Below, piece after piece: positions 4,287 to 32,609 of a stretch of 64,000 nt of DNA. The first letter of the stretch is position 1, and every line of letters begins with the position of its first letter. Location of the stretch: IMG/VR virus record IMGVR_UViG_3300032226_000829. One strand, given 5' to 3'. The position numbers and the translations under genes are program-made. The notes below the pieces were generated by a model. It saw nothing but the letters and a program-made list of their open reading frames with translations. It had not been told where the DNA came from and did not search any database. The stretch comes from a virus. Taxonomy: Duplodnaviria > Caudoviricetes.

Positions 4287-5486
4287 ATGCTGCCAATTGA
4301 CAAATTCACACAGGTCACGGATCAACTGAAAGAGTCCGGCAACTATCGTGTGTTCAATGACATACAGAGAGAAAGGGGCAGTTTTCCCACCTCCATATGG
4401 CATTCCAAATACAACATCAAAAAAGTGGTCAATTGGTGTTCCAATGATTATCTTGGCATGGGCCAACACAAGGTTGTGTTGGATGCCATGCGTACAGCAT
4501 TGGATCATGTGGGAGCAGGTTCTGGTGGTACTCGAAACATTTCAGGTACCTCACATTATCACGTGGCATTGGAGCAAGAGTTGGCTGTGTTGCACCGCAA
4601 ACCAGCTGCATTATTGTACACGTCTGCCTACGTCGCAAATGAATGGACGTTGATCGCTTTGAAAAAAATCATTCCGGATGTTGAATACGTAAGTGATGAT
4701 AAAAATCACGCCAGTCTCATTCAAGGTATGAGACACAGTGGTGCTGTGAAGCATGTATTCCGACATAATGATATGAAGGATCTAGAAAGCAAACTGATGG
4801 CCGTCAAAGGCACTCCCTGCATTGTCTTTGAATCCGTGTATAGCATGGATGGGAGCGTAAGTTTGATTTCTGAAATTTGCGAACTTGCCGACAAATACCA
4901 CGCCATAACTTACATAGATGAAGTGCATGCCGTGGGTTTGTACGGCGAGCAAGGCGGAGGCATGGTGCAACAGTTGGGGCTAGAATCCAGAGTGGACATC
5001 ATCAATGGCACCTTGGGCAAAGCATTTGGCTGTCATGGTGGATACATTGCTTCAGCTGCAGAATTGATTGATGCTGTGAGATCAGTGAGTTCAGGATTTA
5101 TTTTTACCACTTCGCTGCCACCAGTGGTGTGTGCAGGTGCCACTGCCAGTATTAAATTTTTACGAGATGAAACAGGTCAGGTATTGAGAGAAAAACATCA
5201 AAGCATGGTGTATCAGACCAAACAGGCACTGAGAGCAGCCCACATAGAAATATTGGAGAATCAAACCCACATTGTGCCAGTGATGGTGAGAGATCCAAAA
5301 AAATGTAAAAAAATAAGTGATCATCTGTTGTATGAGCATGACACATATATTCAACCCATCAATTATCCCACAGTGCCTGAAGGTACCGAAAGATTGAGAA
5401 TAGCACCCACTCCCAATCACAATCAAGTGATGATAGACACATTGATCAAAGGGCTCACCACAGGGTTCACTAAATACAACGACTAA
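4287..5486 (+). CDS. hemA: 5-aminolevulinate synthase (PLP-dependent, C4/Shemin pathway)
   Basis: WCSNDYLGM, GAGSGGTRNISGT, FESVYSMDG, DEVHAVG, GTLGKAFG (PLP lysine), IFTTSLPP, QPINYPTVP.G.ERLRI. Confidence 0.95.
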   Translation: MLPIDKFTQVTDQLKESGNYRVFNDIQRERGSFPTSIWHSKYNIKKVVNWCSNDYLGMGQHKVVLDAMRTALDHVGAGSGGTRNISGTSHYHVALEQELAVLHRKPAALLYTSAYVANEWTLIALKKIIPDVEYVSDDKNHASLIQGMRHSGAVKHVFRHNDMKDLESKLMAVKGTPCIVFESVYSMDGSVSLISEICELADKYHAITYIDEVHAVGLYGEQGGGMVQQLGLESRVDIINGTLGKAFGCHGGYIASAAELIDAVRSVSSGFIFTTSLPPVVCAGATASIKFLRDETGQVLREKHQSMVYQTKQALRAAHIEILENQTHIVPVMVRDPKKCKKISDHLLYEHDTYIQPINYPTVPEGTERLRIAPTPNHNQVMIDTLIKGLTTGFTKYND

Positions 5487-5488
5487 AC

Positions 5489-5584
5489 ATGTTTAAAAAA
5501 ATTAAAAAATATTTGATCACTGTATTCTCAGATTGGGCAAACTATGTGTATGCTCCCAATAAACAAAAGTCCCCCCGCAAATAA
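5489..5584 (+). CDS. 31-aa small ORF (MFKKIKKYLITVFSDWANYVYAPNKQKSPRK)
   Basis: Starts 2 nt after the hemA stop and fills the gap; below the ORF-track cutoff. Confidence 0.4.
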   Translation: MFKKIKKYLITVFSDWANYVYAPNKQKSPRK

Positions 5585-5607
5585 TGAGTGACTCCATAAA
5601 TAATTTG

Positions 5608-5838
5608 ATGGATGACAGTCATTTATACGAACAACTCACGTTGGAAGAACTGTTTCAGGAAGAGATTGACCATCTACAAATGGCCATAGATGAATTGGAT
5701 GGTGAAGGACTGACAGAAGAAAATCAGACCAAGATATTGAAGTATCGTATAGTACAAGAATATTTTCGAGCCAGAATAGACAGCCTCACGGGCCACACAG
5801 GTGTGAACCCACCCCCAGCAGATTCCACTCTGCACTAA
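5608..5838 (+). CDS. Acidic hypothetical protein
   Basis: ORF track 5584..5838; start at 5608 preferred because TAAATA lies 5 nt upstream. Confidence 0.6.
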   Translation: MDDSHLYEQLTLEELFQEEIDHLQMAIDELDGEGLTEENQTKILKYRIVQEYFRARIDSLTGHTGVNPPPADSTLH

Positions 5839-5848
5839 AAATATTAGA

Positions 5849-6019
5849 CTAGGGTAAAAAACTGGAGATTGCAGTCACCACGGCCAACGCAAAAAGTGCA
5901 ACTCCGCAGATGCCTGCCAGCACTGCATACACTGGTTCATATTCCAGCCAGTGTGATTTGATCTTTTTTTTGTTGCTGTTGCTCAACCAACGATTTTCAC
6001 AAGTGTTATAAGGTAACAT
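5849..6019 (-). CDS. 56-aa single-TM hypothetical protein
   Basis: Manual translation MLPYNTCENRWLSNSNKKKIKSHWLEYEPVYAVLAGICGVALFALAVVTAISSFLP; hydrophobic C-terminal half. Confidence 0.55.
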   Translation of the reverse strand: MLPYNTCENRWLSNSNKKKIKSHWLEYEPVYAVLAGICGVALFALAVVTAISSFLP

Positions 6020-6108
6020 ATTTTACTTTTATTATATGGGTCACGGCAGACAAAAAGATACTGCTGATGTCTGCCACAACCGTTATGATTAGTTTTGTAA
6101 ATTAAAAA

Positions 6109-6495
6109 CTACTTCTTCTCAACACCATTAACAAATGCTTTGGTGAATTTCTCTACATTAGATTGAAATTCTTTCACATTGTTAAGGATGGCTTCTGGTT
6201 TGAAAGATTCTTGCACTTTTGCATTGAACTTTTTCATACCTTCCATCAACACCTGAGTGTTTTCTGCATAAGATTGACCATTGGTCACAAACTCATTGAA
6301 CTTTTGAGCTGTGTGGATGATGTCTTCAGCGGCAATGGTAGGGGCTTTGAATTCGGCCACCACTTGATCGCCTTCTTTTCTTAGGCTGTACTCATACTCT
6401 TGTTGTTTGATTGTGTAGTTGAACTCGGCGATTGATTTCGCAAGTCCTAATAGGTCGGCACGGATTTCGTAGCCGTTTCTTGTTGTTGTAGACAT
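6109..6495 (-). CDS. Hypothetical phage protein (NGYEIR.. family)
   Basis: 128 aa; strong RBS aaaaggagaacaac-ATG. Confidence 0.75.
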   Translation of the reverse strand: MSTTTRNGYEIRADLLGLAKSIAEFNYTIKQQEYEYSLRKEGDQVVAEFKAPTIAAEDIIHTAQKFNEFVTNGQSYAENTQVLMEGMKKFNAKVQESFKPEAILNNVKEFQSNVEKFTKAFVNGVEKK

Positions 6496-6673
6496 GTTGT
6501 TCTCCTTTTGTGTGTGTTTGTGTCTGTGTTACACCATTGTAACTTCAATAATATAACAGTGTTATTTATCAAAGTCAACCTCTTTTTTGCTGCAATGCAA
6601 CAATCTTTTGCTGCAAACGCATATCAATTCTACCAAAATCCATAAAATATCACCAAATTCATAAATAACACAT

Positions 6674-7468
6674 ATGATTAGTGATATCAAACAGCGTCAG
6701 ATACTCAGTCTCAATGAATGGGAACAGAGCCTACTGTTTGCTGAGCTCAGCATGATTGCCTACAATGACGAAAAAAAAGCCACAGCACAGGCAAAAGAAA
6801 TAGGATTCACAGAAGTGCATTTCTTTGATCACAAAGGTGCTCAGGGTTACACTTTTGAAACTGCCACAGATCTAGTGGTGGCCTGCAGAGGCACTGAACC
6901 CACAGAATTCAATGACCTAGCAGCAGATCTCAGAGCGTTGCCTGTGAAAAGCCGCACCATGGGCAGGGTACACAAAGGATTCAAATTGGAAGCAGACAAG
7001 ATCTGGGAAGGATTAAAAAAGCAGATTGAAACATCAGAAAAAATCACATGGTTCACTGGACACAGTCTGGGTGCTGCCATGACCACACTTTGTGCTGCAA
7101 GATGTTTTTATTTGGCTCCACAGATCACTGTGGGTGCCATATTCACTTATGGTTCGCCCCGAGCAGGTTGGAGAGGGTTTGTGAACAATCTACATGTGCC
7201 ACACTGGCGCTGGGTCAACAATGCAGACGTGGTCACACGTGTGCCATTGACTGTGATGGGCTATGTGCATCACGGCAAAATCAGATACATCAACACTTTT
7301 GGCAATGTGAGAGAGTTTACCTACTGGCAAAGATTCAAGGACAAATGGCGTGGCATATGGCGTGGGTTGAAGAAATTGTCATTCAAGAATTTCAGTGATC
7401 ATGGCATGGCCAATTATGTGGCTCACATTGCCAAAAAAGTTCAAAACAAAGAATATCCACAGCAATAA
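6674..7468 (+). CDS. Class 3 lipase (alpha/beta hydrolase)
   Basis: VVACRGTE, VHKGF, FTGHSLGAA nucleophile elbow, TYGSPR, NNADVVTRVP, C-terminal DH. Confidence 0.9.
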   Translation: MISDIKQRQILSLNEWEQSLLFAELSMIAYNDEKKATAQAKEIGFTEVHFFDHKGAQGYTFETATDLVVACRGTEPTEFNDLAADLRALPVKSRTMGRVHKGFKLEADKIWEGLKKQIETSEKITWFTGHSLGAAMTTLCAARCFYLAPQITVGAIFTYGSPRAGWRGFVNNLHVPHWRWVNNADVVTRVPLTVMGYVHHGKIRYINTFGNVREFTYWQRFKDKWRGIWRGLKKLSFKNFSDHGMANYVAHIAKKVQNKEYPQQ

Positions 7469-7495
7469 CCCCCAATAATACACGCAGTTAATCAC

Positions 7496-7524
7496 TTGAC
7501 AACCACCCAGCACAGTGCTATAAT
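7496..7524 (+). promoter_or_regulatory. Consensus sigma70-type promoter
   Basis: TTGACA-N17-TATAAT. Confidence 0.8.
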
Positions 7525-7578
7525 TAAACACATGGTGTTTTTGGTAACATTTGACGGTAAATACCTTGAAAGCATCAT

Positions 7579-7833
7579 ATGAAAAAACAAACTAGATCCA
7601 TTTTACAGGAACTGAACACAGTTTACAGAGCCAAAGACCTGGATCACATCGTGGAAGCCAAAGGCAGCAACATCATAGAAAGTGCCATCAATCTGTTGGC
7701 AGTGATCAATGAGAAGTATGATCCTGAAACTGCTCAAGAGTTGGAGCGACGTTTTATCAATTCCATACGCAATGGTGACAGTAAAAAATTCAAAACAGGC
7801 ATTAAAAAAATTCAAGAAGGCGAGAGCGAATAA
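7579..7833 (+). CDS. Hypothetical protein
   Basis: 84-aa helical ORF, coupled to the next gene via TAATG. Confidence 0.7.
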   Translation: MKKQTRSILQELNTVYRAKDLDHIVEAKGSNIIESAINLLAVINEKYDPETAQELERRFINSIRNGDSKKFKTGIKKIQEGESE

Positions 7834-8588
7834 TGCAACTCAAAGAAGGTGGCAATATCTTCAAAGGTGCTGAAGGAGAATTGCTCACAGGTAGAATCAA
7901 TCAAGCAGATGTGGCACCCACAGTGAAATGGTTGGAAGGTATCACAGGATTATCTTTGCAGGATGCCATGTTGGGCACCACAGGCAAGGCTCCCACCAGC
8001 GGTGATATGGATTTGGGTGTGGATGAAAGCAAAATCAGCAAAGACGAATTGGTAGCAAAATTATCTCAGTGGGCACAATCACAACAGCAAGATCCCAAAC
8101 AGTGGGTGCGCAAAAGTGGTATCTCTGTACACTTCAAAACTCCCATTGGCGGTGATATGAAAAAAGAAAAATTTGTTCAAACAGATTTTATGTTTGGAGA
8201 TCCCACATGGCAAAAGTTCAGTCTGCAAGGTGGCACAGTGGGCAGTGATTACAAAGGTGTTGATCGTCACATATTGCTGGCCAGCATTGCCAAAGCGTTG
8301 GGATATCGTTGGAGTCACAACTATGGATTGCTCAATCGCGAAAGCAATCAACCAGTGAGCAAAGATCCAGACAGAATTGCTCAACTGTTGTTGGGTGTGG
8401 ATCACACAGCCAAAGATTTAAACAGTGTGGAGAGTATCCACAAAATTATTCGTGGCCGTTCTGACTATGAAAAATTAATAGCAGATGCTGTGGAGTCATT
8501 TGCCAAAGCAGGCAAGCGATTGCCTGAGCACACAGTGGAAGGTTCTAATGTGTGGTTTAGAAACATGATGAATGTGGTGGGCAGATGA
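7833..8588 (+). CDS. Pol-beta superfamily (PolX-like) nucleotidyltransferase
   Basis: LGTTGK...SGDMDL (hG[S/T]xnDhD), third Asp in VQTDFM, C-terminal AKALGYRWSHNYGL resembling the PolX thumb. Confidence 0.7.
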   Translation: MQLKEGGNIFKGAEGELLTGRINQADVAPTVKWLEGITGLSLQDAMLGTTGKAPTSGDMDLGVDESKISKDELVAKLSQWAQSQQQDPKQWVRKSGISVHFKTPIGGDMKKEKFVQTDFMFGDPTWQKFSLQGGTVGSDYKGVDRHILLASIAKALGYRWSHNYGLLNRESNQPVSKDPDRIAQLLLGVDHTAKDLNSVESIHKIIRGRSDYEKLIADAVESFAKAGKRLPEHTVEGSNVWFRNMMNVVGR

Positions 8589-9727
8589 AATTAGTAGAAT
8601 TCAAAACAATCACAGGACGTTGTGACATATTGCTGGAAGATGCCAGAATACATCACCTGGAAGATTTTGTGCTGTGGAATGGCAGTCAAGGAGCCAGTCA
8701 AGCATTGGACGCACTCAGTAATATTAATAAAAATTTAAAAAGTGTCACAATCAAATGGGATGGTGCCGTGGGAGTGATCTTTGGAAGAAATCCCAATGGA
8801 GAATTCATATTCACAGACAAAGCAGGATTTGTGGCCAAAGGCTATGATGGTAGAACCACCAATGCAGATGATTTGGGTGCCATGATACAAGGTCGTGCCA
8901 AAGATGTGAACAAGGCAGCGGACTATAAAGTTTTTGCTGACAAAATGAAATCAGTGTTTCCCATCATTGAATCTGCCACTCCAGAAAACTTGGCGGGGTA
9001 TTACCGAGCAGACATATTGTATTTTCAACAGCCTGAATTAAAAGATGGCAGATACCAGTTCAAACCCAATGTGGTCACCTACAGTGTCACACCAGACAGT
9101 GTGTTGGGCAAAAAAATTGCCAAAAGTTCTGTGGGCGTGGTGATTCACAGCATGATCAATGAGCAGGGCACTGAACAGCCTGTGCCAGATGATTTAGAAT
9201 TCAAAGGCAGCAAACTGCTGGTGGTGCCACCAGTCACTGTGAGCAATCCTGTGCAGTTGGATACCACTCAGTTGGCTCAGGTAAAATCCATGCTGACACA
9301 ACATGCCCGAGACATTGACACAGTGTTGGATCGCAACAAATTGACTGCAATGAAAGTGTCAGATTTTGCCAACATACTGTACACCTATGTGAACAGCAAA
9401 GTGCTCACTGGCATGAAAGACTTGGGCAGAGATTTTGTAAAATGGCTCACAACCACCAGTGCTGTGAGTCGCAACAAACAAGGCAAAATTGTGGATTACG
9501 TGAAACAGAATGTGGTGGGATTCAATGCACTGTGGAAAGTATTTGCAGGCATTCAAGCAGCCAAAGATTCAGTGATTGCACAATTGGACAATCAAGGGTC
9601 GGATGTGACTGCCAGCATCAACGATCAACCAGGTGGTGAGGGCTATGTGATACAAACAGCTCAAGGCCCAATCAAATTGGTGAACAGAGCAGGGTTCTCA
9701 AAAGTGAATTTTGCACTAAATAGATAG
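8585..9727 (+). CDS. Covalent nucleotidyltransferase (RNA/DNA ligase-like) protein
   Basis: Motif I TIKWDG, motif III-like YRADILY, motif IV EGYVI, motif V IKLVNR. Confidence 0.6.
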   Translation: MKLVEFKTITGRCDILLEDARIHHLEDFVLWNGSQGASQALDALSNINKNLKSVTIKWDGAVGVIFGRNPNGEFIFTDKAGFVAKGYDGRTTNADDLGAMIQGRAKDVNKAADYKVFADKMKSVFPIIESATPENLAGYYRADILYFQQPELKDGRYQFKPNVVTYSVTPDSVLGKKIAKSSVGVVIHSMINEQGTEQPVPDDLEFKGSKLLVVPPVTVSNPVQLDTTQLAQVKSMLTQHARDIDTVLDRNKLTAMKVSDFANILYTYVNSKVLTGMKDLGRDFVKWLTTTSAVSRNKQGKIVDYVKQNVVGFNALWKVFAGIQAAKDSVIAQLDNQGSDVTASINDQPGGEGYVIQTAQGPIKLVNRAGFSKVNFALNR

Positions 9728-9728
9728 T

Positions 9729-10127
9729 ATGGTAAAAGCAACAGATTTCATGCCCAAAAAGATCAGCATCATGGATCCAGCAGATGATCCCAATGCAGGA
9801 CTGGACAAAGAATTCAAACAGGACACCATGTTCAATCAGTTGGGCAAAGTGTTGGACAGCAGAGGCAATCCCAATCCCATCACACACGTGACCACAGATG
9901 ATGGCGAAAAACACCCCATCACTGCACAGCAGGCCAGAGCACTGAGAGCATTGGCCACTGCAGAAAATGTGAAACCAGCCACAAAATTACAATTTACCAA
10001 AGACATTCAAACAGGTGTGGGCATTAAAAAGTTTTTGTCACAGCCTGACACCAAGAATTATGTGAGCACTTTTGTGGACACCTACATGAAGGGTCAAACT
10101 GTGTACACGCCCACCACCAAGTACTAA
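9729..10127 (+). CDS. Hypothetical protein
   Basis: 132-aa ORF in the same operon. Confidence 0.7.
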   Translation: MVKATDFMPKKISIMDPADDPNAGLDKEFKQDTMFNQLGKVLDSRGNPNPITHVTTDDGEKHPITAQQARALRALATAENVKPATKLQFTKDIQTGVGIKKFLSQPDTKNYVSTFVDTYMKGQTVYTPTTKY

Positions 10128-10238
10128 CCCCCTAAAAATTAACACTGTAGAGAATTTTGGCATCAGATGCCATAAATAATCACAACCAGTCCACGGAGCG
10201 TGGATTTGGCCATTAACAATGATAAAAGGAGAACAACA

Positions 10239-10544
10239 ATGGCTACAGTAACAAACACAAACCAACCTGTGATTTCTTTAAATCAAGGATTGGGTGGAAA
10301 AACGCAAATCATAAACATTGCGAAAACCAACATGACAAACGCAGAAGTGAACACTATCTTAGTGGACATTGCTTACGATGGTTTTACCATCGCTGGCGTG
10401 ACCACTGCTGATGGTTCAGCTTTCGTATCTGCCACAACCGACAACTTAGTAGTTGCACTTCAAGGCACAGCAACCTACGCAGCAGAGCCTTCAAATGCTC
10501 ACGGTGTAACAGGTGCAGTGACTACAGTATTAGCAGTATTCTAA
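10239..10544 (+). CDS. Small, probably highly expressed virion protein (decoration-like)
   Basis: Strong RBS aaaggagaacaaca-ATG, TAAATA promoter and 5' hairpin upstream, terminator downstream, Thr/Ala/Val-rich. Confidence 0.6.
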   Translation: MATVTNTNQPVISLNQGLGGKTQIINIAKTNMTNAEVNTILVDIAYDGFTIAGVTTADGSAFVSATTDNLVVALQGTATYAAEPSNAHGVTGAVTTVLAVF

Positions 10545-10575
10545 TACTTTGGTCCAAGTGATTGGATCTACACAC

Positions 10576-10608
10576 AAAGGGCGTTCAGGAAACTGGGCGC
10601 CCTTTTTT
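10576..10608 (+). terminator. Intrinsic terminator
   Basis: aaaGGGCGTTCAG-gaaa-CTGGGCGCCC-tttttt. Confidence 0.85.
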
Positions 10609-10631
10609 ATTGACTGTTAAATACCCACGAT

Positions 10632-11045
10632 ATGTACCAAGTTTATTCACTCATAGACATCACCAAAACTGATCAGCATCGCCACAAGAGCAATGATCGC
10701 TGTGCTGTGGATCAGCAATCCAACTACAATGTGTTTGAACAGTGTCTCATGCTGAGAAGCAACGTGAACATACACAGTCGTCCAGTGGCTCTGCACAAGG
10801 ATGTGAAACAATTTGCCTTTGGAAGCAGATATCAAGGTCAGCATCAGATTTGGTTCATGGAGTTTGACACAGATCAGCCAGACTATGTCACTGTGCAACA
10901 ACTGCAGGAAGATTTCAACATGGTGCCCATGATCTCCAATCTCAAAGAGAGCATCAACATCAACAACAATATTTTTATCACTCAAGATCCTCAGAACACA
11001 AACATAGTGTTTTATAAAAACAGCACACTTAAAACCACAGACTAG
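10632..11045 (+). CDS. Hypothetical protein
   Basis: 137-aa ORF preceded by TAAATA. Confidence 0.7.
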   Translation: MYQVYSLIDITKTDQHRHKSNDRCAVDQQSNYNVFEQCLMLRSNVNIHSRPVALHKDVKQFAFGSRYQGQHQIWFMEFDTDQPDYVTVQQLQEDFNMVPMISNLKESININNNIFITQDPQNTNIVFYKNSTLKTTD

Positions 11046-11060
11046 CAGATAAATATCTGT

Positions 11061-11291
11061 ATGAGCGAACTGGAAAAAGAAAATTTAGAAGCACACGTTG
11101 ATCTTTGCGCCGAGCGTTACAAAGCCTTGGAAGCACGTCTCACTGCCATTGAAGAAAAAGTGGCTGAGTTGCATTCAGAAATGCTCAAAGGCAACTCAGG
11201 CATGACCAAAACGATCATAATAGCCACGGGTGCTATAGTCACAGGCTTGCTCAGCACCATAGTCACACTGCTGATGAAATTCCCTGGGTAA
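11061..11291 (+). CDS. Small coiled-coil protein with C-terminal TM helix
   Basis: LEKENLEAHVDLCAERY coiled coil plus hydrophobic IIIATGAIVTGLLSTIVTLL; TAAATA 5 nt upstream. Confidence 0.7.
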   Translation: MSELEKENLEAHVDLCAERYKALEARLTAIEEKVAELHSEMLKGNSGMTKTIIIATGAIVTGLLSTIVTLLMKFPG

Positions 11292-11333
11292 TCACCCACA
11301 CACGCTAAATACATCAAAACAACAATCATTGCT

Positions 11334-11660
11334 ATGAAAATTGTGGAAATACTGTCAGAATCTGTGGTTTCAGTCTGGGGTCGCAAAGGCAGCGGCATGG
11401 CCAGACGCTATAGATGCACAGCCGGCATTCGCAAAGGACGTATTGTGAGCAGTCCTACCACTTGTACCAAACCCAAAGATATCAAAAAATCTTTTAGATT
11501 CAAAGCCACCAGAGCTCGCAGAGGATCAGCCATGGGAATCAAAGCATCCAGAACCAAACGTGCCACAGTCAGCAGTCGAGTGAGAAAATTAAACATTGGT
11601 CAAGCACGTCAAAAACTTAAACCCTATAAACCTGGCAAAAGAAAGCCCATAAGAAAATGA
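11334..11660 (+). CDS. Very basic hypothetical protein (MKIVEILSE...)
   Basis: 108 aa, Arg/Lys-rich after an N-terminal IxE/LxE motif. Confidence 0.7.
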   Translation: MKIVEILSESVVSVWGRKGSGMARRYRCTAGIRKGRIVSSPTTCTKPKDIKKSFRFKATRARRGSAMGIKASRTKRATVSSRVRKLNIGQARQKLKPYKPGKRKPIRK

Positions 11661-12046
11661 GATTAAAAGAATTTGCACCCAATGATTATTTGAATAAGGT
11701 CTTGAAAAAAGTAGGACCCAATGCCATACGCACCGGCGCACCCATGCCTCAGAATGTGCTGCCCAAAGGTCCCATTAAGACTGCTGCACCTGCAGTGAAA
11801 TCCACCATGAACAAAATGAACACTGCCACCAACAAAAATTTATTGAAACCTGGACAGAAATTACCCATGCCCACAGCACCCGGCAAGGAGACAGACATGG
11901 ATATTATGGCAGTGGGTCCTGACACAGTGAAATTACAGAGCAAAGATCCCAAAAACCCAGGAGAAGTCACTGTGAAGAAAAAAGACTTGGATCCCGTGAT
12001 CAATAATCTCATGCAGAGAAGCAGAGGACAACAGACCACACGATGA
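11657..12046 (+). CDS. Hypothetical protein (MRLKE...)
   Basis: 129 aa, ATGA overlap with the upstream gene. Confidence 0.7.
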   Translation: MRLKEFAPNDYLNKVLKKVGPNAIRTGAPMPQNVLPKGPIKTAAPAVKSTMNKMNTATNKNLLKPGQKLPMPTAPGKETDMDIMAVGPDTVKLQSKDPKNPGEVTVKKKDLDPVINNLMQRSRGQQTTR

Positions 12047-14227: not shown

Positions 14228-14602
14228 ATGAGCGAAAGAACCAAAGCGGATATAATCTCCGACATCAACACAGTGATAGAAAAATATGTGCTGCCAGCAG
14301 TGGGCAGTCATGGTGGTGCTGTGAAGTTGGTTGATTTCGATCCACTCACAGGAGTTTTGAAATTACAGATGGGCGGGGCCTGTTCAGGCTGTGCCGGCAG
14401 CAAGATGACACTGAAGAATGGCGTGGAGAAAATTTTGTTTCACTATGTGCCTGAAGTTAAGAGCATTGAAGCAGAAGATGACGAACAAAGTCAAGTGGAT
14501 CCTTATTTGAGTCATCCCATAGACTATCCTTCGGCCAATGAGATGTTGGATGAGCTCACACACCTCAGCAAGTTCGTTACACCAGACGAAGATAGAAAAT
14601 AG
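14228..14602 (+). CDS. NifU/Nfu-type Fe-S cluster carrier
   Basis: VLPAVGSHGGAVKLVDF...LQMGGACSGCAGSKMTLKNGVE (CxxC). Confidence 0.9.
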   Translation: MSERTKADIISDINTVIEKYVLPAVGSHGGAVKLVDFDPLTGVLKLQMGGACSGCAGSKMTLKNGVEKILFHYVPEVKSIEAEDDEQSQVDPYLSHPIDYPSANEMLDELTHLSKFVTPDEDRK

Positions 14603-21554: not shown

Positions 21555-21580
21555 CACGGCACCGTTAAATAGTGTATAAT
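21551..21580 (+). promoter_or_regulatory. sigma70-type promoter with extended -10
   Basis: TTGACA-N18-TATAAT with TG; 6 nt before ATG 21587. Confidence 0.7.
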
Positions 21581-21586
21581 ACAAGC

Positions 21587-21832
21587 ATGTCAGAATCAAA
21601 CAAAACCATAGTGTGGAGCAAGGTCACTTGTCCTTTTTGCGACATGGCCAAAACACTGTTAAAAAACAAAGGCATTGCGTTTGAAGAAAGAATGATAGGT
21701 GTGGAGTGGACCAGAGAACAACTGCTGGAATCAATACCACAGGCAAGAACAGTGCCACAAATTATATTGAATGGTGAATACATTGGTGGGTACGATCAAC
21801 TCCGAGCATATTTTAATCAAGGAAAAAAATGA
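21587..21832 (+). CDS. grx: Glutaredoxin
   Basis: CPFC active site, TVPQI, IGGYD. Confidence 0.92.
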   Translation: MSESNKTIVWSKVTCPFCDMAKTLLKNKGIAFEERMIGVEWTREQLLESIPQARTVPQIILNGEYIGGYDQLRAYFNQGKK

Positions 21833-22969: not shown

Positions 22970-22977
22970 TTCGACCA

Positions 22978-24734: not shown

Positions 24735-24780
24735 AACTTTCTCCTGTTGTTGAGCTTGTATTTATGCTATTTTTACTCAC

Positions 24781-24809
24781 TTGACATAAAAATGTAAATA
24801 ACATATAAT
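24781..24809 (+). promoter_or_regulatory. Consensus sigma70-type promoter, leaderless
   Basis: TTGACA-N17-TATAAT, 6 nt before ATG 24816. Confidence 0.8.
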
Positions 24810-24815
24810 ATAGGG

Positions 24816-25169: not shown

Positions 25170-25171
25170 AT

Positions 25172-25423
25172 TTAGATACTTGGATTGAGCTGTTCTAAGA
25201 ATTCTTGTTCTTGTTGCAATAACCCATTGGTCATGTTTATTATTTCTTTTTCATCAAAACAATAGGTGCTGCCAGAACTGTCAGGGAAATTTTTTCTTAT
25301 TTTTTCCACCACAGTTTCAGAATATTTACTACAATCTTCTCTGGATGTGAATTCAGGTTCTGTGACCATATAATTTTCACATTGCCCCCACATACAAATC
25401 ACCACCACTAAGAAAAACTTCAT
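25172..25423 (-). CDS. Small secreted protein with Cys pairs
   Basis: MKFFLVVVICMWGQC... signal-like N-terminus; start at 25423 preferred. Confidence 0.6.
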   Translation of the reverse strand: MKFFLVVVICMWGQCENYMVTEPEFTSREDCSKYSETVVEKIRKNFPDSSGSTYCFDEKEIINMTNGLLQQEQEFLEQLNPSI

Positions 25424-25491
25424 AAAAATACTTAACCTTTGATTTATAAAAATTTTATGGTTGTTTAATGATTTGTGCAGAGCTGTGTTGT

Positions 25492-25803
25492 TTACAGTGC
25501 TGGTTCGTCCTGTTTGGATGGCTTGCTCGCTGCCACAGTGGTAGTGGTAGCAATCTTTTCTTGTGATCTGCCATATGCTGATAGTCCCAGTACTGCTCCC
25601 ATGGCAATGTGAAAGAAACCAGCACCTTGCAATGTTAAAGGACTCCATTGAGTGAACACAATCGTTTTTAAATAAGTGGCCTGAGCTAGGTTCCATAATA
25701 TAGGAAATATCACAAAATCAAAAGCACAGATTCCCATGTACAACCAACCCATAGCTGGTCTCCATCGTTTCTGCATCCAATCTTCTTTTTTGATTTCACT
25801 CAT
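25492..25803 (-). CDS. Holin-like membrane protein (3TM/GTA-holin type)
   Basis: WMQKRWRPAMGWLY, FHIAMGAVLGLSAYGRSQEK. Confidence 0.6.
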   Translation of the reverse strand: MSEIKKEDWMQKRWRPAMGWLYMGICAFDFVIFPILWNLAQATYLKTIVFTQWSPLTLQGAGFFHIAMGAVLGLSAYGRSQEKIATTTTVAASKPSKQDEPAL

Positions 25804-25855
25804 ATGTTTTATTATGTACTACTATATTTACATCAGATTGACAGGAATTAAACTA

Positions 25856-26179
25856 CTACTTATTGATTTTTTTTCTGTAGAATTTTTCTATGACTTCTTT
25901 GCAGGCATCATGCCAGTATATACCACAATCACGCAATCTTTCATTGGCTCTGCGTAGTTTTTCCAGCTTATTCACTAAAGTTTTATTTTGTGCTGTGGTA
26001 AGACGTTTGGTGGTGTTGCTGAGTGTGTCCAGACGCTGAATCACATCATCTATGGCAGGGCAGGTGATATCGGGCACTCTGGGTGCTTTTTTTCTCACTG
26101 ATTTCCAGATGGATAGGTATTTGGGTGTTCTTTTTTTGTACATGTCACCTCTCGATGTTTTATTTAAAGTTTCGGCCAC
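25856..26179 (-). CDS. Hypothetical protein
   Basis: 107 aa; PDITCPAID...LEKLRRANERLR. Confidence 0.6.
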   Translation of the reverse strand: MAETLNKTSRGDMYKKRTPKYLSIWKSVRKKAPRVPDITCPAIDDVIQRLDTLSNTTKRLTTAQNKTLVNKLEKLRRANERLRDCGIYWHDACKEVIEKFYRKKINK

Positions 26180-26337
26180 TGCCAGTTAAATGTTGTTATA
26201 AAACATTTTGGTTACATTGGCAATAAAAAGTCAATGATTACGCCATTTTTGTTTTGGCATTAGTGATTGACTTTGACTCCAGCTTCACATATAATGAACA
26301 CATGAGTAAAAATACTACAAATAATAAAGGAGGCAAA

Positions 26338-26934
26338 ATGAAAGGCTCAAGAATAGCGATTGTGGTGCTGTTGGCTGGTTTACTGAATGCTTGTGCAAAC
26401 AGGATGGTAACACTGCCAGTGGAAACTGCAAACACCAAAGAAGTACCTGTTTGGTATTTGGACCATGCTGACACAGGATCAGAAGGTTGGTTATGGAACA
26501 AAGAAGGTATGTTCTATGCTGTGGGTACAGATGTATCTCCAGACATGGAAATGTCTTACAAAAAGGCTTTGATCAAAGCCAAAGCAAAGATAGTAGATAG
26601 AGTAGTGGGAGAAGTGAGCAACAAAACCACTTACAAATTGGATGAAACTGGCAATGCTGAAAGAACCATCGGCAAAGTAGAAGCACAAGACTTGATTGTG
26701 AATCTTATTTCAGACACATCTTTAAGAACATACTCTGTGGACAAGAAATTAACTGTGTTTAACCCTGAAATTAACAATTACAGAAGTTTTATATTGGTTA
26801 AGATTTCCAAAGCAGATGTGGATGCTATCTTAAAAAAATATGAGCAGGACAAACAAAACAAATCATTCTTAGGATTTAATAAATCCAATGATTTAGAAAA
26901 GTCCAGCGACAAGTTATTAAACAAAACGAGATAA
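26338..26934 (+). CDS. LPP20-like lipoprotein
   Basis: RBS aggaggcaaa-ATG; signal peptide with lipobox LNA-C; VPVWY and A..KA..KAKA motifs. Confidence 0.7.
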   Translation: MKGSRIAIVVLLAGLLNACANRMVTLPVETANTKEVPVWYLDHADTGSEGWLWNKEGMFYAVGTDVSPDMEMSYKKALIKAKAKIVDRVVGEVSNKTTYKLDETGNAERTIGKVEAQDLIVNLISDTSLRTYSVDKKLTVFNPEINNYRSFILVKISKADVDAILKKYEQDKQNKSFLGFNKSNDLEKSSDKLLNKTR

Positions 26935-26935
26935 T

Positions 26936-27277
26936 ATGATCCGTTTTGAATACCTATTGGCAGCCACAGTTCTGTTTTTAGCACTGATATGGGCTTCAAC
27001 AACCATAGCTGGTGGACCTTGGAGCAATCAATACTGTAATCTTAAAACAGAAACAGTGATTGTGAAAGATGCCAAAGGTAATATCATCAAAGAGGATTCA
27101 GTAGAAAAGCTGGTGTGTGATGATGGTCGCAAAGACTTTCTTCAATACAGTGGCATTGCAAAAAGTTGCAGAGAATTCTGGTATGAAATCAATTTAAATG
27201 GATCATGGGTCAACAAGAGGGGTTATGTTTGTCAAAAATTTGATGGCAGTTGGGAAATCGTTAATACTGGCAGGTAG
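26936..27277 (+). CDS. Secreted Cys-containing hypothetical protein
   Basis: N-terminal signal peptide; four Cys in the mature region. Confidence 0.65.
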   Translation: MIRFEYLLAATVLFLALIWASTTIAGGPWSNQYCNLKTETVIVKDAKGNIIKEDSVEKLVCDDGRKDFLQYSGIAKSCREFWYEINLNGSWVNKRGYVCQKFDGSWEIVNTGR

Positions 27278-27677
27278 TTTATTGCTGTTGAATCAGTGTG
27301 CTTCACACACTGTGGCAGTGGATAGCCAGAGTACCTACAAGAGTGTGGAGACTGTGTATGATAAAAATACAAGCAGTGCCAACTATTTGGCTAATTTTTT
27401 CAAATACAACTACTACATGTTGAACGATGAGGACAAAGACAAACAAAAAACAGCCATATACTTTGCATTGAACAACTTGGATCATGATGTGGTGACCACA
27501 TGGTACAGCAAAAACTCACAGGCACAAGGTCATGTGAGAATAGTGAGCAGTTATCCGCAGGGCAGTGGCTATTGCAGAGTTATTTTCAGTCAATTGATAT
27601 ACAAAGACAAAGAACGCAGTTTCAGTGAGACCGCATGCACAGATATTGCACACATAGGTTGGCGATTCATCAAATAA
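27243..27677 (+). CDS. RT0821/17-kDa surface-antigen-like lipoprotein
   Basis: Lipobox-like LNQ-C; W.S.NSQA.G.V......GSGYCR.......ETAC......W. Confidence 0.6.
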   Translation: MAVGKSLILAGSLLLLNQCASHTVAVDSQSTYKSVETVYDKNTSSANYLANFFKYNYYMLNDEDKDKQKTAIYFALNNLDHDVVTTWYSKNSQAQGHVRIVSSYPQGSGYCRVIFSQLIYKDKERSFSETACTDIAHIGWRFIK

Positions 27678-27709
27678 ATTTGATAAATATATCCTGTAAA
27701 GGATAAAAA

Positions 27710-29281
27710 ATGTTATTGGGTTTAATTACATTATTAACAGCATTTGCATTGAGTTCTGCCGCAATTTATTTTTCGGTTGTGGGTCTAGTGGCTATATTTT
27801 CAGGAGCCGCAGGTCCAATCATATTCATGGGAACCACTTTGGAGTTGGCCAAGTTGGTCACTGCCAGCTGGTTGTATCGTAATTGGCATGTGGCAGCAAG
27901 ATATATGAAAGTGTATCTAACCATTTCTATATTCATACTGATGGTTATCACCAGCATGGGTGTGTTTGGATTCCTATCCAAATCACATCTACAACAAGGT
28001 GCCACATCCAGCAACAACACTCAACAAATTTCCATCATCAACAGTCAGATCAAAACAGAACAGGATGTGATTGATCGTCAACAAGACATTATCCGACGTA
28101 ATTCAGGCACAGGTGGTGGCGCAGGTGAACGTGTGAGTCAATTGAGAGATAAAATCAAACAGTTGGATGCTGAAGTCAAAGCCTACACTGATCAAGGTGC
28201 TACCAGCACCATATTCAATGACAAAGTGGCCAAAGGAGTTGCTCTAAAAGAATCACAAAAAGCAGAACGAGACAGAATTGATGCAGAAATCAAACAGTTG
28301 ACCACTGCCAATCAAGGCAATAACTCTGCCGCTGAAGCACAGATTGCTCGCAGTCAACAGAAGATACAACAGTTGATCTCTCAACGAGCTCCATTACAAA
28401 CCACACAGATCACATTGGATGCTGAGATTGGTCCTATCAAATACATTGGAGAATTGTTTGTGGATTTAGGCATGGTGGACAAAGTCAACACTGACATGGC
28501 AGTGCGTTGGATCATTGTGTTGATTATTATTGTGTTCGATCCATTGGCAGTATTGTTACTGATTGCTGGACAACAAAGCATCAAACAACATTATTCAAAC
28601 AACGGCAACGGGGGTGGCAGATCCACTGCTCCAATCATAGATCCTACACCGATCATAAACAGACTATCAGAAAAGTTTAAAAACTTTTCTTTCAAAAAAA
28701 AAGACTCTAGTCTAGATAAACTACCCACATTATCTGAACCCATAGTTGAACCCACAGTTGTTCAAGAACAACCAGCAAAACCTGGATTGAGATTGAGTAC
28801 ATTGTCTTTGCCTAAATCATTCACATTTAAAAAAACAGAAACAGTTGTGCCAACTGAAATACTCACGTCCACTGTGGAAGTCATAGACACTGAAGACGGT
28901 GACACATTGGAGATAGTGACTAAAGAACAAAAAACTAGATTGGATCATTTCAACAGTCAAAAAGACAAAGCCAAACAATGGAAAGGACAGCAGACCAATC
29001 CTAGACACACTATTAAAAGATTAAGATTCAATTATGTGTCAGGAGCCATTGACAAATTACCTTGGGACACAGTGGAAGCAGACATACCGCCCATGCCCAT
29101 AGATCAGTGGAACCAAATGTTGGAAGAAGCAGAAAAAGCACTGGAACAAGACAAAGAGCAAACAACAAAAAGTTACATAATCAAAGAAGATCAACAGCAA
29201 GTGAGAAAAACGGTAGCAGAAGAATACGTTCAAAACCAAGAACAAACAGATCAATCAATCTGGAATCGCATCAAAAAATAA
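27710..29281 (+). CDS. Membrane-anchored coiled-coil protein
   Basis: Three N-terminal TMs, long coiled coil, EIGPIKYI and a further TM (IIIVFDPLAV). Confidence 0.75.
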   Translation: MLLGLITLLTAFALSSAAIYFSVVGLVAIFSGAAGPIIFMGTTLELAKLVTASWLYRNWHVAARYMKVYLTISIFILMVITSMGVFGFLSKSHLQQGATSSNNTQQISIINSQIKTEQDVIDRQQDIIRRNSGTGGGAGERVSQLRDKIKQLDAEVKAYTDQGATSTIFNDKVAKGVALKESQKAERDRIDAEIKQLTTANQGNNSAAEAQIARSQQKIQQLISQRAPLQTTQITLDAEIGPIKYIGELFVDLGMVDKVNTDMAVRWIIVLIIIVFDPLAVLLLIAGQQSIKQHYSNNGNGGGRSTAPIIDPTPIINRLSEKFKNFSFKKKDSSLDKLPTLSEPIVEPTVVQEQPAKPGLRLSTLSLPKSFTFKKTETVVPTEILTSTVEVIDTEDGDTLEIVTKEQKTRLDHFNSQKDKAKQWKGQQTNPRHTIKRLRFNYVSGAIDKLPWDTVEADIPPMPIDQWNQMLEEAEKALEQDKEQTTKSYIIKEDQQQVRKTVAEEYVQNQEQTDQSIWNRIKK

Positions 29282-29295
29282 ATCAATAACTACTA

Positions 29296-29679
29296 TTGAT
29301 GAGCAAGATTAATCTAATCACAGCACCCGATCGTTTGCACAACAATAACTGCAGTGTGCTACTGATCAATCCCAGTGAAGCAGTCAAAGCAGATTTCAAT
29401 CGAGCCATACTGAATTTGAATCAAGAAATTAATCTATATCTTTATGAGACCACGGAAGTCAATGATTATGATTGGTTGATCACTGTGAGCAACACAGTGG
29501 ATCACATTGTGATAGATATCAGTCACACTGACAAAGATTTTTGGTTGACAGGATATGTTCTAAGTTTGCCTCACACATCATATATCAGTATGATCAATCA
29601 AATGCCCTATCATTTATTGAATAAAAATAGAATATATGATTTTTCTGCATTCACAGAAAAATTAAACAAGAAAGATTAA
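29296..29679 (+). CDS. Hypothetical protein
   Basis: 127-aa ORF. Confidence 0.65.
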   Translation: MMSKINLITAPDRLHNNNCSVLLINPSEAVKADFNRAILNLNQEINLYLYETTEVNDYDWLITVSNTVDHIVIDISHTDKDFWLTGYVLSLPHTSYISMINQMPYHLLNKNRIYDFSAFTEKLNKKD

Positions 29680-29682
29680 ACT

Positions 29683-30276
29683 ATGGTTATGCGAGCTGAC
29701 TTGTGGTTTCCACAAATTGTATGGAAGGACAACATTACAAATTTGGACAATTCTGCCATAAAAACTCATGTGTTGGAAACAAAAAATCATAGTCAAGGCA
29801 AAACTGCCACCAATCAATTGGGATGGCAGAGTGAAGATTATTTTTTAGATTCAGGCAAAACACCACAGATAGAACACATGATAAGAGTATTGGATTCTCA
29901 TGTGAAAGATTGTGCTCGTCAGGCCAGTCTACCTCCCTTGCGTATCTGTAATTTTTGGTTTAATGTGAATCCCAAAGGATCCTACAACACTCTACACAAT
30001 CATCAACACAGTGTGCTGAGTGGAGTGTATTACATTGACATACCCACGGACAACATGGGCAACATTGAATTCCATAGATCAGATGAAGCACAGTATTATA
30101 TTCCGGACAACATGGACAAGTACACACAATTCACCAGTACCAAAGCCACATATAAACCAGAAACAGGCATGTTGTTGATATTCCCCAGCTGGCTCAAACA
30201 TTTTGTACACAGCAATCAAAGCGAGCAGTCACGCATATCCATGAGTTTTAACACTCAACTGGACACACAAAAATAA
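29683..30276 (+). CDS. 2OG-Fe(II) oxygenase-like protein
   Basis: WFNVN...YN..H.H..SVLSGVYY, LLIFPSWLKH.V, R.SMSFN. Confidence 0.85.
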   Translation: MVMRADLWFPQIVWKDNITNLDNSAIKTHVLETKNHSQGKTATNQLGWQSEDYFLDSGKTPQIEHMIRVLDSHVKDCARQASLPPLRICNFWFNVNPKGSYNTLHNHQHSVLSGVYYIDIPTDNMGNIEFHRSDEAQYYIPDNMDKYTQFTSTKATYKPETGMLLIFPSWLKHFVHSNQSEQSRISMSFNTQLDTQK

Positions 30277-30401
30277 TTGCCAAAAACTCTTGACTTTTGC
30301 CACAATCATCACTATATTAACAGTTGTCACAATGGTGTGACTCAACTGTATGAATTGCTGCATGGGATTCATACACAAACTCGCTAAAAAAGGAGAAAAC
30401 T

Positions 30402-30851
30402 ATGAACAATAGAGCACTAACTATCTTTAATCAACTAAGACCCGTTACAGTGGGCTTTGATAACGTTTTTGATCACTTCGAAAGAATGGTCAATGACGAT
30501 TTCTTTAACGTACCTACTGTTAACTATCCACCTTACAATATTGTAAAGACTGGCGTTAATACGTACAACGTTGAAGTGGCTTTGGCAGGATTCAACAGAG
30601 ACGATGTTTCTGTGGAATTTGAGGAAGGGGTAATGACCATCAAATCCAAAGACCGAACAGAGTCTAAGAAACAGGATGCGGATGATAACATTATCCACAA
30701 GGGTATTTCCAAAAGATACTTCAGTAAATCATTCACAGTGGCCGATGATGTAGAAATCAAAGGTGCTGAATTAAAAGATGGTTTACTAACTGTTTCTATG
30801 GAAAGAATCGTTCCAGAAAACAAAAAAGCCAGAGTAATAGAAATACTATAA
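30402..30851 (+). CDS. Small heat-shock protein (Hsp20/IbpA family)
   Basis: NYPPYNI, VEVALAGF, IHKGIS.R.F...F, AELKDGLL. Confidence 0.95.
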   Translation: MNNRALTIFNQLRPVTVGFDNVFDHFERMVNDDFFNVPTVNYPPYNIVKTGVNTYNVEVALAGFNRDDVSVEFEEGVMTIKSKDRTESKKQDADDNIIHKGISKRYFSKSFTVADDVEIKGAELKDGLLTVSMERIVPENKKARVIEIL

Positions 30852-30859
30852 TACAAATC

Positions 30860-30883
30860 TTAGGGCGTGGCAACACGCCCTAA
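30860..30883 (+). terminator. Hairpin after hsp20
   Basis: TTAGGGCGTG-gcaa-CACGCCCTAA. Confidence 0.65.
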
Positions 30884-30898
30884 CTAAATATAAAATAT

Positions 30899-31201
30899 AT
30901 GAGCAAAACCAAAACCGATATAGTCCTAGACGAAAAAGTAGAACAGATAATATTAGAACCAGAAATGGTCAAAGTGATCATGTTGAATGATGATGTTACT
31001 CCAGTAGACTATGTGGTAGAACTATTGATAAAAATATTCAAACACACTCAAGACAGTGCCAAAGAAATCACACTTAAAATTCACACAGAAGGCAGCAGTG
31101 TGGTGGGTTCCTACAGTTATGAAATAGCTGAACAGAAAACCAAAGAAGCCATAGAAGATGCCAGAAGCAGAGGCTTTCCTCTACAAGTAAGAATGGAATA
31201 A
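30899..31201 (+). CDS. clpS: Clp protease adaptor ClpS
   Basis: KVIMLNDDVTPVDYVVELL, IH.EG..VVG.Y..EIAEQK, FPL. Confidence 0.92.
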   Translation: MSKTKTDIVLDEKVEQIILEPEMVKVIMLNDDVTPVDYVVELLIKIFKHTQDSAKEITLKIHTEGSSVVGSYSYEIAEQKTKEAIEDARSRGFPLQVRME

Positions 31202-31203
31202 CA

Positions 31204-31737
31204 ATGAGCCTCAAAGATCTCACTTGGGAACATCATAAGAACGCAGAACGTCAAAAGTTTGTGAAGGTTATGTTTTCAGGCAGCATTGATCCCAAATTGT
31301 ACGCAGAATTTTTATTCAATCAACACATGGCATACGACTTGTTGGAAATGATGGCCATGTCGCACGGCATATTCAATGGAATGGAAGATGTGAGAAGAGC
31401 TCCTAAAATATTAGCAGATTTCAAAGAACTTTGGCCCAAGGATCAAACATTGCCTGAACCCAAAAACGCAACCAAGACATATTTGGATCATTTACTCACA
31501 ATCAAAGACAACAAGGATGCACTGATGGCTCACGTGTATGTGAGACACATGGGAGATCTGTCAGGTGGACAAATGATACGTAAAAAAGTTCCAGGTGCTG
31601 GCACCATGTTTGATTTTGCAGACAAAGATCAAGCCAAAGAGATTATCCGATCAAGAATAAACGATTCCATGGCAGATGAAGCTAAAAAATGTTTTGATTT
31701 CGCCACTGGGTTGTTTCAGGACATGCTCAATGACTAA
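31204..31737 (+). CDS. hemO: Heme oxygenase
   Basis: LKDLTWEHHKNAE (proximal His), YVRHMGDLSGGQ, EA..CF.F. Confidence 0.92.
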   Translation: MSLKDLTWEHHKNAERQKFVKVMFSGSIDPKLYAEFLFNQHMAYDLLEMMAMSHGIFNGMEDVRRAPKILADFKELWPKDQTLPEPKNATKTYLDHLLTIKDNKDALMAHVYVRHMGDLSGGQMIRKKVPGAGTMFDFADKDQAKEIIRSRINDSMADEAKKCFDFATGLFQDMLND

Positions 31738-31912
31738 GAAGAAAAAATTTAAAGATTTTCCAGGCAACTTGATCAAAATAAAAGTATTGGAAGATGAGAT
31801 AAGTTATTTTAAAACACAGATTCAAGAACACGACACAGGTCATATCTACACCACCATAGACACATTAAAAGACAGAGTACGAGAGTTAAAAGGCATCCGA
31901 GAAGAATATTAA
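31730..31912 (+). CDS. Small hypothetical protein between hemO and pcyX
   Basis: 60 aa, overlaps the hemO stop. Confidence 0.6.
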   Translation: MTKKKKFKDFPGNLIKIKVLEDEISYFKTQIQEHDTGHIYTTIDTLKDRVRELKGIREEY

Positions 31913-31913
31913 C

Positions 31914-32609
31914 ATGAGTTTCATTTGGGATACCTTGATTGCATGTCAGAATAATATCATCACAGAATTCAATTCACGCGGCAAAGAGATTCAAGAACCC
32001 GGCATGAGCAGATTCAATCAACCCGAAAATGGTTGGATCAATAGAGTGTGGGAAACTGAACACTGTCGTCGTTGTCACATAGACGTGGTGGATGCTAGAC
32101 AAAGCAAAGGTCTTTGGATGATGCATGTGTGTGTATTTCCACATTTGCACAACAATGGTCCTATCTATGGATTCGATGTGATTGCCGGAGAACACAAAAT
32201 GACCGGCGCATTTCATGACTTTTCACGCAGCTCAGGTGGTGATCAACATCCACTGATAGAATGGTATCACCAAGCAGTGGCAGAGTTCATTCCTTCTAAA
32301 AGAAGAAAACTACCAGAGTGGGCACTGAATATATTTTCAGGTAGCATGATTGCCGCAGGCAATGTGCAAACAGACGAAGAAGCCAACACCATTGTGAATC
32401 TTGCAGTGAACAACCTACAAGTGTATTTTGACAGCATAGGACAATATGCTCACACTGCCAAGGAAGCAGATACCATTGAGGCACAAAACTATTATTGTCA
32501 TAATCAGCAACAGAATCCACACACACCTAGAGTGATGAAAAGTTTAGGTTTGGCAGAAGCAGACGTAGAATTATTTTGCACAGACGCACTATTTCCAAAA
32601 ATAAAATAA
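31914..32609 (+). CDS. pcyX: Ferredoxin-dependent bilin reductase, PcyX/PcyA-like
   Basis: RRCHIDVVDAR..KGLWMMHVCVFP, PIYGFDVIAG, AFHDFS, NQQQNPHTPRVM. Confidence 0.85.
   Translation: MSFIWDTLIACQNNIITEFNSRGKEIQEPGMSRFNQPENGWINRVWETEHCRRCHIDVVDARQSKGLWMMHVCVFPHLHNNGPIYGFDVIAGEHKMTGAFHDFSRSSGGDQHPLIEWYHQAVAEFIPSKRRKLPEWALNIFSGSMIAAGNVQTDEEANTIVNLAVNNLQVYFDSIGQYAHTAKEADTIEAQNYYCHNQQQNPHTPRVMKSLGLAEADVELFCTDALFPKIK

Follow-up and report, generated by a model that had tools for sequence, protein, structure and literature searches.

The 64,000-nucleotide stretch of the viral record IMGVR_UViG_3300032226_000829 (Caudoviricetes) that was analysed here, hereafter the window, to which all coordinates refer, carries on its + strand three genes of tetrapyrrole metabolism: alaS, which encodes a 5-aminolevulinate (ALA) synthase (ALAS), and, ~26 kb further on, hemO and pcyX, which encode a short heme oxygenase and a ferredoxin-dependent bilin reductase (FDBR). 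All three open reading frames (ORFs) were confirmed at the coordinates given in Table 1. A sequence-only reading of this DNA had already placed an ALA synthase and the hemO-pcyX pair in one phage genome, and profile scores together with the kept catalytic residues bear out both the identities of the genes and their intactness. The window is best read, with a probability of about 0.85, as part of a freshwater jumbo phage related to T4 whose auxiliary genes for tetrapyrrole metabolism are a set already published, here in the unlinked form, the 'broken cassette'. Wegner et al. (2024, Nat Commun, PMC11480375) described that set from aquatic phages, and the window is a further example of it.

The alaS product scores 557.8 bits against the ALAS equivalog model TIGR01821, which has a cut-off of 338.55, and the solved structures closest to it are bacterial ALAS proteins, at 423–432 bits. 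In a gap-free alignment to the R. capsulatus enzyme (2BWN, 423 bits), Lys245, which is the pyridoxal phosphate lysine, His141, Asp211 and His214 correspond to K248, H142, D214 and H217, and the glycine-rich loop is conserved. The heme-feedback residues of the R. capsulatus enzyme, by contrast, are both gone: Lys339 occupies the position of His342, and the C-terminal tail is devoid of cysteine, Cys400 being missing. The window enzyme is therefore predicted to be insensitive to heme. Wegner et al. (2024, PMC11480375) reported the loss of His342 and Cys400 for many viral AlaS proteins (vAlaS) and showed that the vAlaS of phage CB_2 complements an ALA-auxotrophic E. coli strain. In a maximum-likelihood tree, the window protein falls within the ALAS clade, in a group of 13 IMG/VR rows with 100/100 support that belongs to a mostly viral radiation of 76 rows; it thus clusters with viral and not with bacterial AlaS, and its gene has phage genes on both sides. 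To judge from these comparisons, the 4287 protein is very probably an active ALAS. A tblastn search for ALAS in the GenBank phage collection, of which Pelagibacter phage Mosig is a member, returned only matches of the KBL/BioF type, at no more than 36% identity, and no true ALAS, while a homologue search for the nearest cellular ALAS returned only unnamed metagenomic proteins of 65–91% identity. A scan of genome contigs for ALAS was biased by the pattern used, and no host was deduced from its top matches, which were short contigs of metagenome-assembled genomes (MAGs) resembling binned phage DNA. An identical ALAS is present on a 175.7 kb ENA scaffold.

The hemO product (70.6 bits against PF01126, cut-off 23) belongs to a short form of heme oxygenase, itself a large family for which 264 clusters were counted at E ≤ 1e-10. 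Its proximal heme ligand, His11, is invariant in 37 relatives, and the distal-helix motif GDLSGGQ is kept and aligns with that of solved heme oxygenases, so that the 31204 protein is in all probability an active, biliverdin-forming enzyme. The pcyX product (60.5 bits against PF05996, cut-off 31) aligns over its full length with PcyX_EBK42635 (PDB 5OWG), a phycoerythrobilin (PEB) synthase from a marine viral metagenome, with a score of 285.1 bits and ~62% identity; the window protein, by contrast, is from lake water. Its Asp57, His71 and Asp88 align with PcyX Asp55, His69 and Asp86, and none of the three varies in 29 relatives. Catalytic roles of His69 and Asp86 in PcyX were reportedly described by Ledermann et al. 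in 2018. On the strength of this resemblance, the 31914 protein is likely to make PEB rather than phycocyanobilin (PCB).

Table 1. Features at and around the alaS and hemO-pcyX loci of the window
Feature	Coordinates	Strand	Evidence and remarks
AlgH-like (DUF179) gene, directly 5' of alaS	3724..4266	+	PF02622, 101.5 bits
Late-type promoter-like motif CATAAATA	4274..4281	+	5 nt ahead of the alaS ATG
valaS, 5-aminolevulinate synthase, 399 aa	4287..5486	+	TIGR01821, catalytic residues, tree
Conserved 84-aa ORF (orf84) downstream of alaS	5584..5838	+	Synteny; 81–99% identity in same-lineage contigs
2-oxoglutarate (2OG)-Fe(II) oxygenase, 5' of the hsp20-clpS-hemO block	29683..30276	+	PF13759, 95.1 bits
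Sigma70-like promoter candidate TTGACT-17-TATATT, before hsp20	30290..30318	+	Consensus scan, 10/12 matches; consensus match only
Small heat-shock protein Hsp20	30402..30851	+	PF00011, 60.2 bits
ClpS adaptor	30899..31201	+	PF02617, 98.8 bits; stop 2 nt before hemO start
hemO, short heme oxygenase, 177 aa	31204..31737	+	PF01126
orfS, conserved 60-aa ORF between hemO and pcyX	31730..31912	+	Synteny and conservation
pcyX, PcyX-type ferredoxin-dependent bilin reductase, 231 aa	31914..32609	+	PF05996, match to 5OWG
SprT-like metalloprotease-motif ORF, downstream of pcyX	32877..33359	+	PF10263, weak match (E 0.011)
SprT-like metalloprotease-motif ORF, downstream of pcyX	33484..33945	+	PF10263, 35.2 bits
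ClpP protease subunit, member of the conserved block	34840..35430	+	PF00574, 245.1 bits

The three genes are not adjacent in the window, alaS ending at 5486 and hemO starting at 31204, which places it in the broken class ('Cassette? N'). A similar distance separates alaS from pcyX in related IMG/VR records: ~27 kb in G002, and 30–41 kb in G009, G015 and the two records rated 100% complete, G012 (358 kb) and G007 (364 kb). Its recurrence in relatives shows that this ~26–41 kb split is a stable trait rather than an accident of assembly. Other arrangements exist among the IMG/VR contigs, of which at least 458 carry ALAS relatives and at least 582 carry PcyX relatives. In ~20 of them (L018–L032, L036, L040, L042), pcyX directly follows alaS with a 4-nt overlap, a 70–77-aa ORF overlaps the start of alaS, and no hemO was detectable within 2.5 kb upstream. 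In L187, L199, L227 and others, alaS lies within 1–2.5 kb of clpS-hemO-pcyX. Many phages, Mosig for example, have hemO-pcyX without alaS, and many have alaS alone.

The window was compared with the known systems that it most resembles. Wegner et al. (2024, PMC11480375) reported that viral alaS occurs on marine and freshwater phage contigs together with hemO and pcyA/X, either in three-gene cassettes or in broken ones, and also by itself; their Supplementary Dataset 1 includes lake phage genomes of 179–325 kb and 40.7–41.7% GC that carry all three genes and are marked 'Cassette? N'; ALAS, ho1 and pcyX-like genes had earlier been listed in large freshwater phages (Chen et al. 2020). The contigs of the 2024 study, notably the lake phages GROS21-1 UViG_0116 (325 kb, 40.7% GC) and UViG_0040, and phage CB_2, share with the window the type of a freshwater giant phage of ~41% GC with the three genes non-adjacent and a vAlaS that lacks the heme-feedback residues. 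The window vAlaS differs in that it falls in a clade of its own, well supported and recognisable by AlgH-alaS synteny, and neither the window ALAS peptide, nor its DNA, nor its IMG and ENA identifiers had a match in the supplementary files of that paper. The closest homologues in a cultured phage are those of Pelagibacter phage Mosig EXVC030M (MT647606), with 55% identity for PcyX and 45% for HemO. In Mosig, however, hemO and pcyX overlap directly, whereas orfS stands between them in the window, and where the window has ClpS, Mosig has four 2OG oxygenases and a ferrochelatase ahead of the pair. The hemO-pcyA-alaS island of Bradyrhizobium sp. ORS278 (cited from Wegner et al., PMC11480375) unites the same three enzyme functions in one genome, but it is bacterial, its genes are adjacent to one another and to a phytochrome gene, and its reductase is of the PcyA kind; in the window, neither a phytochrome nor a GAF protein was found.

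That the window belongs to a T4-related jumbo myophage is indicated by the presence on one contig of a gp44-type clamp loader, a baseplate protein with a gp9/10 N-terminal domain, a class Ia ribonucleotide reductase (RNR) and an ATP-dependent DNA ligase, together with tail proteins. The clamp loader is closest to those of the jumbo phages PA5oct (58% identity) and Atu_ph07 (47%), and the core replication genes resemble those of these two phages and not those of pelagiphages. Resemblance to Mosig is limited to accessory genes (hsp20, hemO and pcyX); the window hsp20 has ~70% nucleotide identity to that of the Pelagibacter phages Mosig and HTVC008M. An alphaproteobacterial host, cited in the sequence-only reading as proposed for marine phages with HemO and PcyX, is therefore not supported for this genome, in which only accessory genes are pelagiphage-like. 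As to habitat, lake-water and freshwater metagenome runs contain 96–100% of the sampled words, with 96–98% for 30900–33400. Heme-auxotrophic freshwater lineages have been described (bioRxiv 10.1101/2021.01.11.426183).

The two loci also differ in their expression signals. The heptamer ATAAATA occurs 25 times in the window (both strands), and ten of these occurrences sit 0–15 nt 5' of an ORF start where 0.28 are expected, an enrichment of ~35-fold over chance. In at least ten genes that have no Shine-Dalgarno sequence it stands 5–9 nt ahead of the ATG (for example at 4275, 6661, 11049, 40132, 42723, 44545, 56416 and 57138), and the genes behind it include a lipase, a superoxide dismutase and the baseplate genes 56428 and 57151, where the geometry is the same as at alaS. 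This strong enrichment at starts indicates that the 'late-type promoter' is a real start-linked signal in this genome, and its closeness to the ATG implies nearly leaderless mRNAs. The late-type promoter assigned to alaS in the earlier reading thus holds as a motif 5 nt before the ATG, from which late timing would be presumed. The hemO-pcyX pair lies in a different transcription unit, downstream of hsp20 and clpS and of a sigma70-like promoter candidate; the ATG of hsp20 has a strong ribosome-binding site, AAGGAG, ahead of it, and clpS comes after a hairpin and a CTAAATA motif.

Both loci are represented in lake RNA libraries. In the contigs of 24 lake metatranscriptome runs, 45–66% of the alaS words are present, and contigs of RNA runs cover hemO, orfS and pcyX at low depth, one of them spanning 31677–31913. 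Between 26000 and 36000, a region that RNA-run contigs cover only in parts, contig depth is 8–39 over hsp20, 2–6 over hemO and pcyX, and up to 118 over 35449–35823, and this very uneven depth favours RNA over carried-over DNA. The segment 35449–35823, which has by far the deepest RNA-run contigs of this region, encodes a 124-aa basic protein with a weak hint of a winged helix.

From the kept residues, the synteny and the promoter motifs, I infer the following course for the enzymes, their product, their timing and the coupling of the two loci. The vAlaS, probably expressed late from an ATAAATA-type promoter on an almost leaderless mRNA, would supply ALA in an unregulated manner, as it has neither of the heme-feedback residues. 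Host enzymes would convert ALA to heme, HemO would open heme to give biliverdin IX-alpha, CO and Fe2+, and the PcyX-type reductase would carry out a four-electron reduction of biliverdin, most likely to PEB, with host ferredoxin as its partner.

One tentative possibility is that the three enzymes form a single coordinated phage pathway to a bilin (or to CO), in which vAlaS feeds heme to HemO and PcyX and iron merely cycles between ferrochelatase and HemO. Both of the complete jumbo genomes tested, and several fragments as well, contain all three genes, and the linkage of alaS to pcyX in the ~20 contigs, or to clpS-hemO-pcyX at 1–2.5 kb elsewhere, argues for a shared function; moreover, heme that is made and then degraded gives no net iron, which would leave bilin or CO as the sole net product. 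The distance of 26 kb and the differing promoter types in the window fit this possibility less well, as do the many phages that carry hemO-pcyX without alaS, such as Mosig, or alaS alone, and the ~68 window ORFs scanned against Pfam yielded no bilin-binding protein (GAF, phytochrome, globin or lyase). Of the interpretation advanced in the sequence-only reading, what the genes are, that they are intact and that a late-type motif precedes alaS all stand, while the push-pull coupling of flux stays conjectural, the loci lying 26 kb apart in separate transcription units.

A more doubtful proposal is one of iron and heme economy, in which HemO would mainly free iron from host heme proteins for the iron enzymes of the phage, PcyX would do no more than clear biliverdin, so that HemO is not blocked by its product, and vAlaS would independently top up respiratory heme. 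The same 64 kb encode a di-iron class Ia RNR, the 2OG-Fe(II) oxygenase, NifU-like and IscA/HesB-type proteins, an Fe/Mn superoxide dismutase and a glutaredoxin-like CPFC protein, and Wegner et al. (PMC11480375), who left open the purpose of the heme-degrading genes and of the bilin, discussed both an iron-supply role and the maintenance of respiratory heme. The clearance of biliverdin, however, needs no specialised four-electron, PEB-forming enzyme with catalytic residues invariant in 29 relatives, and the tight linkage of alaS to pcyX, and not to hemO, in ~20 contigs is a poor fit to two independent functions. The coordinated-pathway and iron-economy proposals are not mutually exclusive.

An alternative that concerns the product only is that the reductase is a functional PcyA and makes PCB, as does the CB_2 enzyme. 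This CB_2 enzyme, the sole freshwater phage FDBR assayed to date, is a true PcyA, and the window protein likewise comes from a lake phage. The alternative is nevertheless unlikely: cyanobacterial PcyA (2D1E) matches the window protein with only 58.9 bits against 285 for the crystallised PcyX, the score for the PcyA equivalog NF002760 is 82.9, far under the cut-off of 206, and the window reductase retains Asp55, a PcyX-specific residue whose loss in CB_2 has been tied to PcyA-type activity (Wegner et al. 2024, PMC11480375). Finally, the idea that the 4287 protein is a KBL/AONS-type acyltransferase, which the sequence-only reading had named as the outcome that would overturn it, is virtually discounted, for although these enzymes share the alpha-oxoamine synthase superfamily and sister models reach 250–310 bits, ALAS is the sole equivalog over its cut-off (BioF, 310.3 against 426.45; KBL, 308.5 against 460; serine palmitoyltransferase also below), solved KBL structures score at most 211 bits against 423–432 for ALAS, and the KBL-like rows of the tree are split from the ALAS clade by a 100/99 branch of length 5.85.

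Several points weigh against the reading of the window as a freshwater jumbo phage equipped with the published gene set in working order. The activities of its three proteins are predicted by comparison, and the product specificity of PcyX was judged from no more than ~62% identity and three residues. The promoters were assigned by motif matching, RNA libraries can contain DNA, and contigs give neither transcript ends nor transcript levels. No ferredoxin was found among the ~68 window ORFs scanned against Pfam, nor a ferredoxin-like cysteine pattern in window ORFs of up to 135 aa, and Fer2 (PF00111), the only ferredoxin family searched for in relatives, is absent from five related IMG/VR records, both complete genomes included, so that the reductase probably uses host ferredoxin. 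HemE (PF01208) is likewise absent from nine related IMG/VR records, among them both complete ones.

The hemO-pcyX pair is embedded in a larger syntenic block. Translationally coupled to both neighbours, orfS starts within hemO, with an overlap of 8 nt at the hemO stop, and stops 1 nt ahead of the pcyX ATG. Homologues of orfS form ~30 clusters from lake and marine metagenomes, always located between hemO and pcyX, and their alignment has 23 invariant columns, a DTGHI motif among them; His38 does not vary either. Between the lake window and Tara Oceans contigs, identity is 76% for orfS, 59% for HemO and 77% for PcyX. The predicted structure of the orfS product is a helix-loop-helix (pLDDT 70); it matched no Pfam family, with sub-threshold noise only at E up to 1, and in the ESM Atlas it matched viral hypothetical proteins only. 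In the 80 best IMG/VR PcyX loci (L156–L235), ClpS lies directly 5' of HemO in 77, and Hsp20 was detected 5' of ClpS in most. At the hemO-pcyX junction, orfS, a helical-hairpin protein of 60–71 aa, is present in 28 loci, that of the window being one (gap of 174–305 nt; L215 has an extra insert of ~1.8 kb), the two genes are directly adjacent in 30 (gap of -2 to 33 nt), and a large insert separates them in 19 (gap of 1.5–2.4 kb); three loci are without a HemO match, and in two of these PcyX is at the locus edge. The insert encodes a flavoenzyme of the Trp-halogenase family (PF04820, 295–301 bits) in L189 (2484–4001, within the variant locus 1952–4696) and L184 (1537–3102). The start and stop codons of the halogenase gene overlap the flanking genes, a CN-hydrolase follows in L184–L186, and the inserts of L197 and L203 encode visibly homologous proteins; at the remaining large-gap loci the content of the insert was deduced from gap size alone.

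The slot between hemO and pcyX may be a mere insertion hot spot, or it may mark accessory steps of the pathway. A bolder proposal, which I regard as distinctly unlikely on present evidence, is that the phage hemO-pcyX cassette is part of a larger conserved operon, Hsp20-ClpS-HemO-[slot]-PcyX, whose slot genes act on the pathway. If it were true, phages would go beyond plain PEB to the handling or tailoring of bilins, for instance by a heme or bilin carrier, a coupling factor or a halogenated bilin, and ClpS could link the pathway to proteolytic control of host tetrapyrrole enzymes. Literature searches found no paper on orfS, on the ClpS-hemO linkage or on a halogenase insert between hemO and pcyX.

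Further members of the surroundings of pcyX are also shared with marine relatives. The 2OG-Fe(II) oxygenase has an equivalent position in L150–L154, a 156-aa ORF stands in place of the two SprT-like ORFs, and the distance from PcyX to ClpP is unchanged in L150–L155. A few kb 3' of the PcyX block, lake and marine relatives have ClpP and also ribosomal protein bS21. On the side of alaS, the order AlgH-alaS-orf84 is common to 15 IMG/VR contigs whose ALAS is 77–100% identical to that of the window; the 84-aa ORF matched no Pfam family over its cut-off. AlgH-like genes next to or near alaS were noted in L033–L082; in many viral contigs outside this lineage, more distant ones stand 1–7 kb away from it. 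On three MAG contigs of 96–500 kb assigned to Neisseriaceae and Francisella (L093, L095 and L096), ALAS is nested in the mostly viral radiation, which may reflect transfer between phage and bacterium.

Elsewhere in the window, the iron and redox genes, which encode a NifU-like domain protein, a glutaredoxin-like CPFC protein, an Fe/Mn superoxide dismutase and an IscA/HesB-type iron-sulphur assembly protein, occupy 14228–14602, 21572–21832, 44557–45126 and 45478–45825, and the dismutase gene has an ATAAATA motif 5 nt upstream. A class 3 lipase (6674–7468) lies behind a late-type motif, and an S8 subtilase (54751–56403) lies within the block of baseplate and tail genes. The UV endonuclease UvdE is split over two ORFs, 43493–44068 and 44111–44545, which match profile positions 26–156 and 193–258.

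The value of these results is mainly confirmatory, in that they repeat a published discovery. They add to it a well-resolved lineage of freshwater jumbo phages that combine an ALA synthase free of feedback residues with a reductase of the PcyX type, not of the PcyA type, and they provide, in ClpS, in orfS and, in other phages, in the halogenase, new handles on the question of why a phage whose host presumably has no phycobilisomes would make a bilin.

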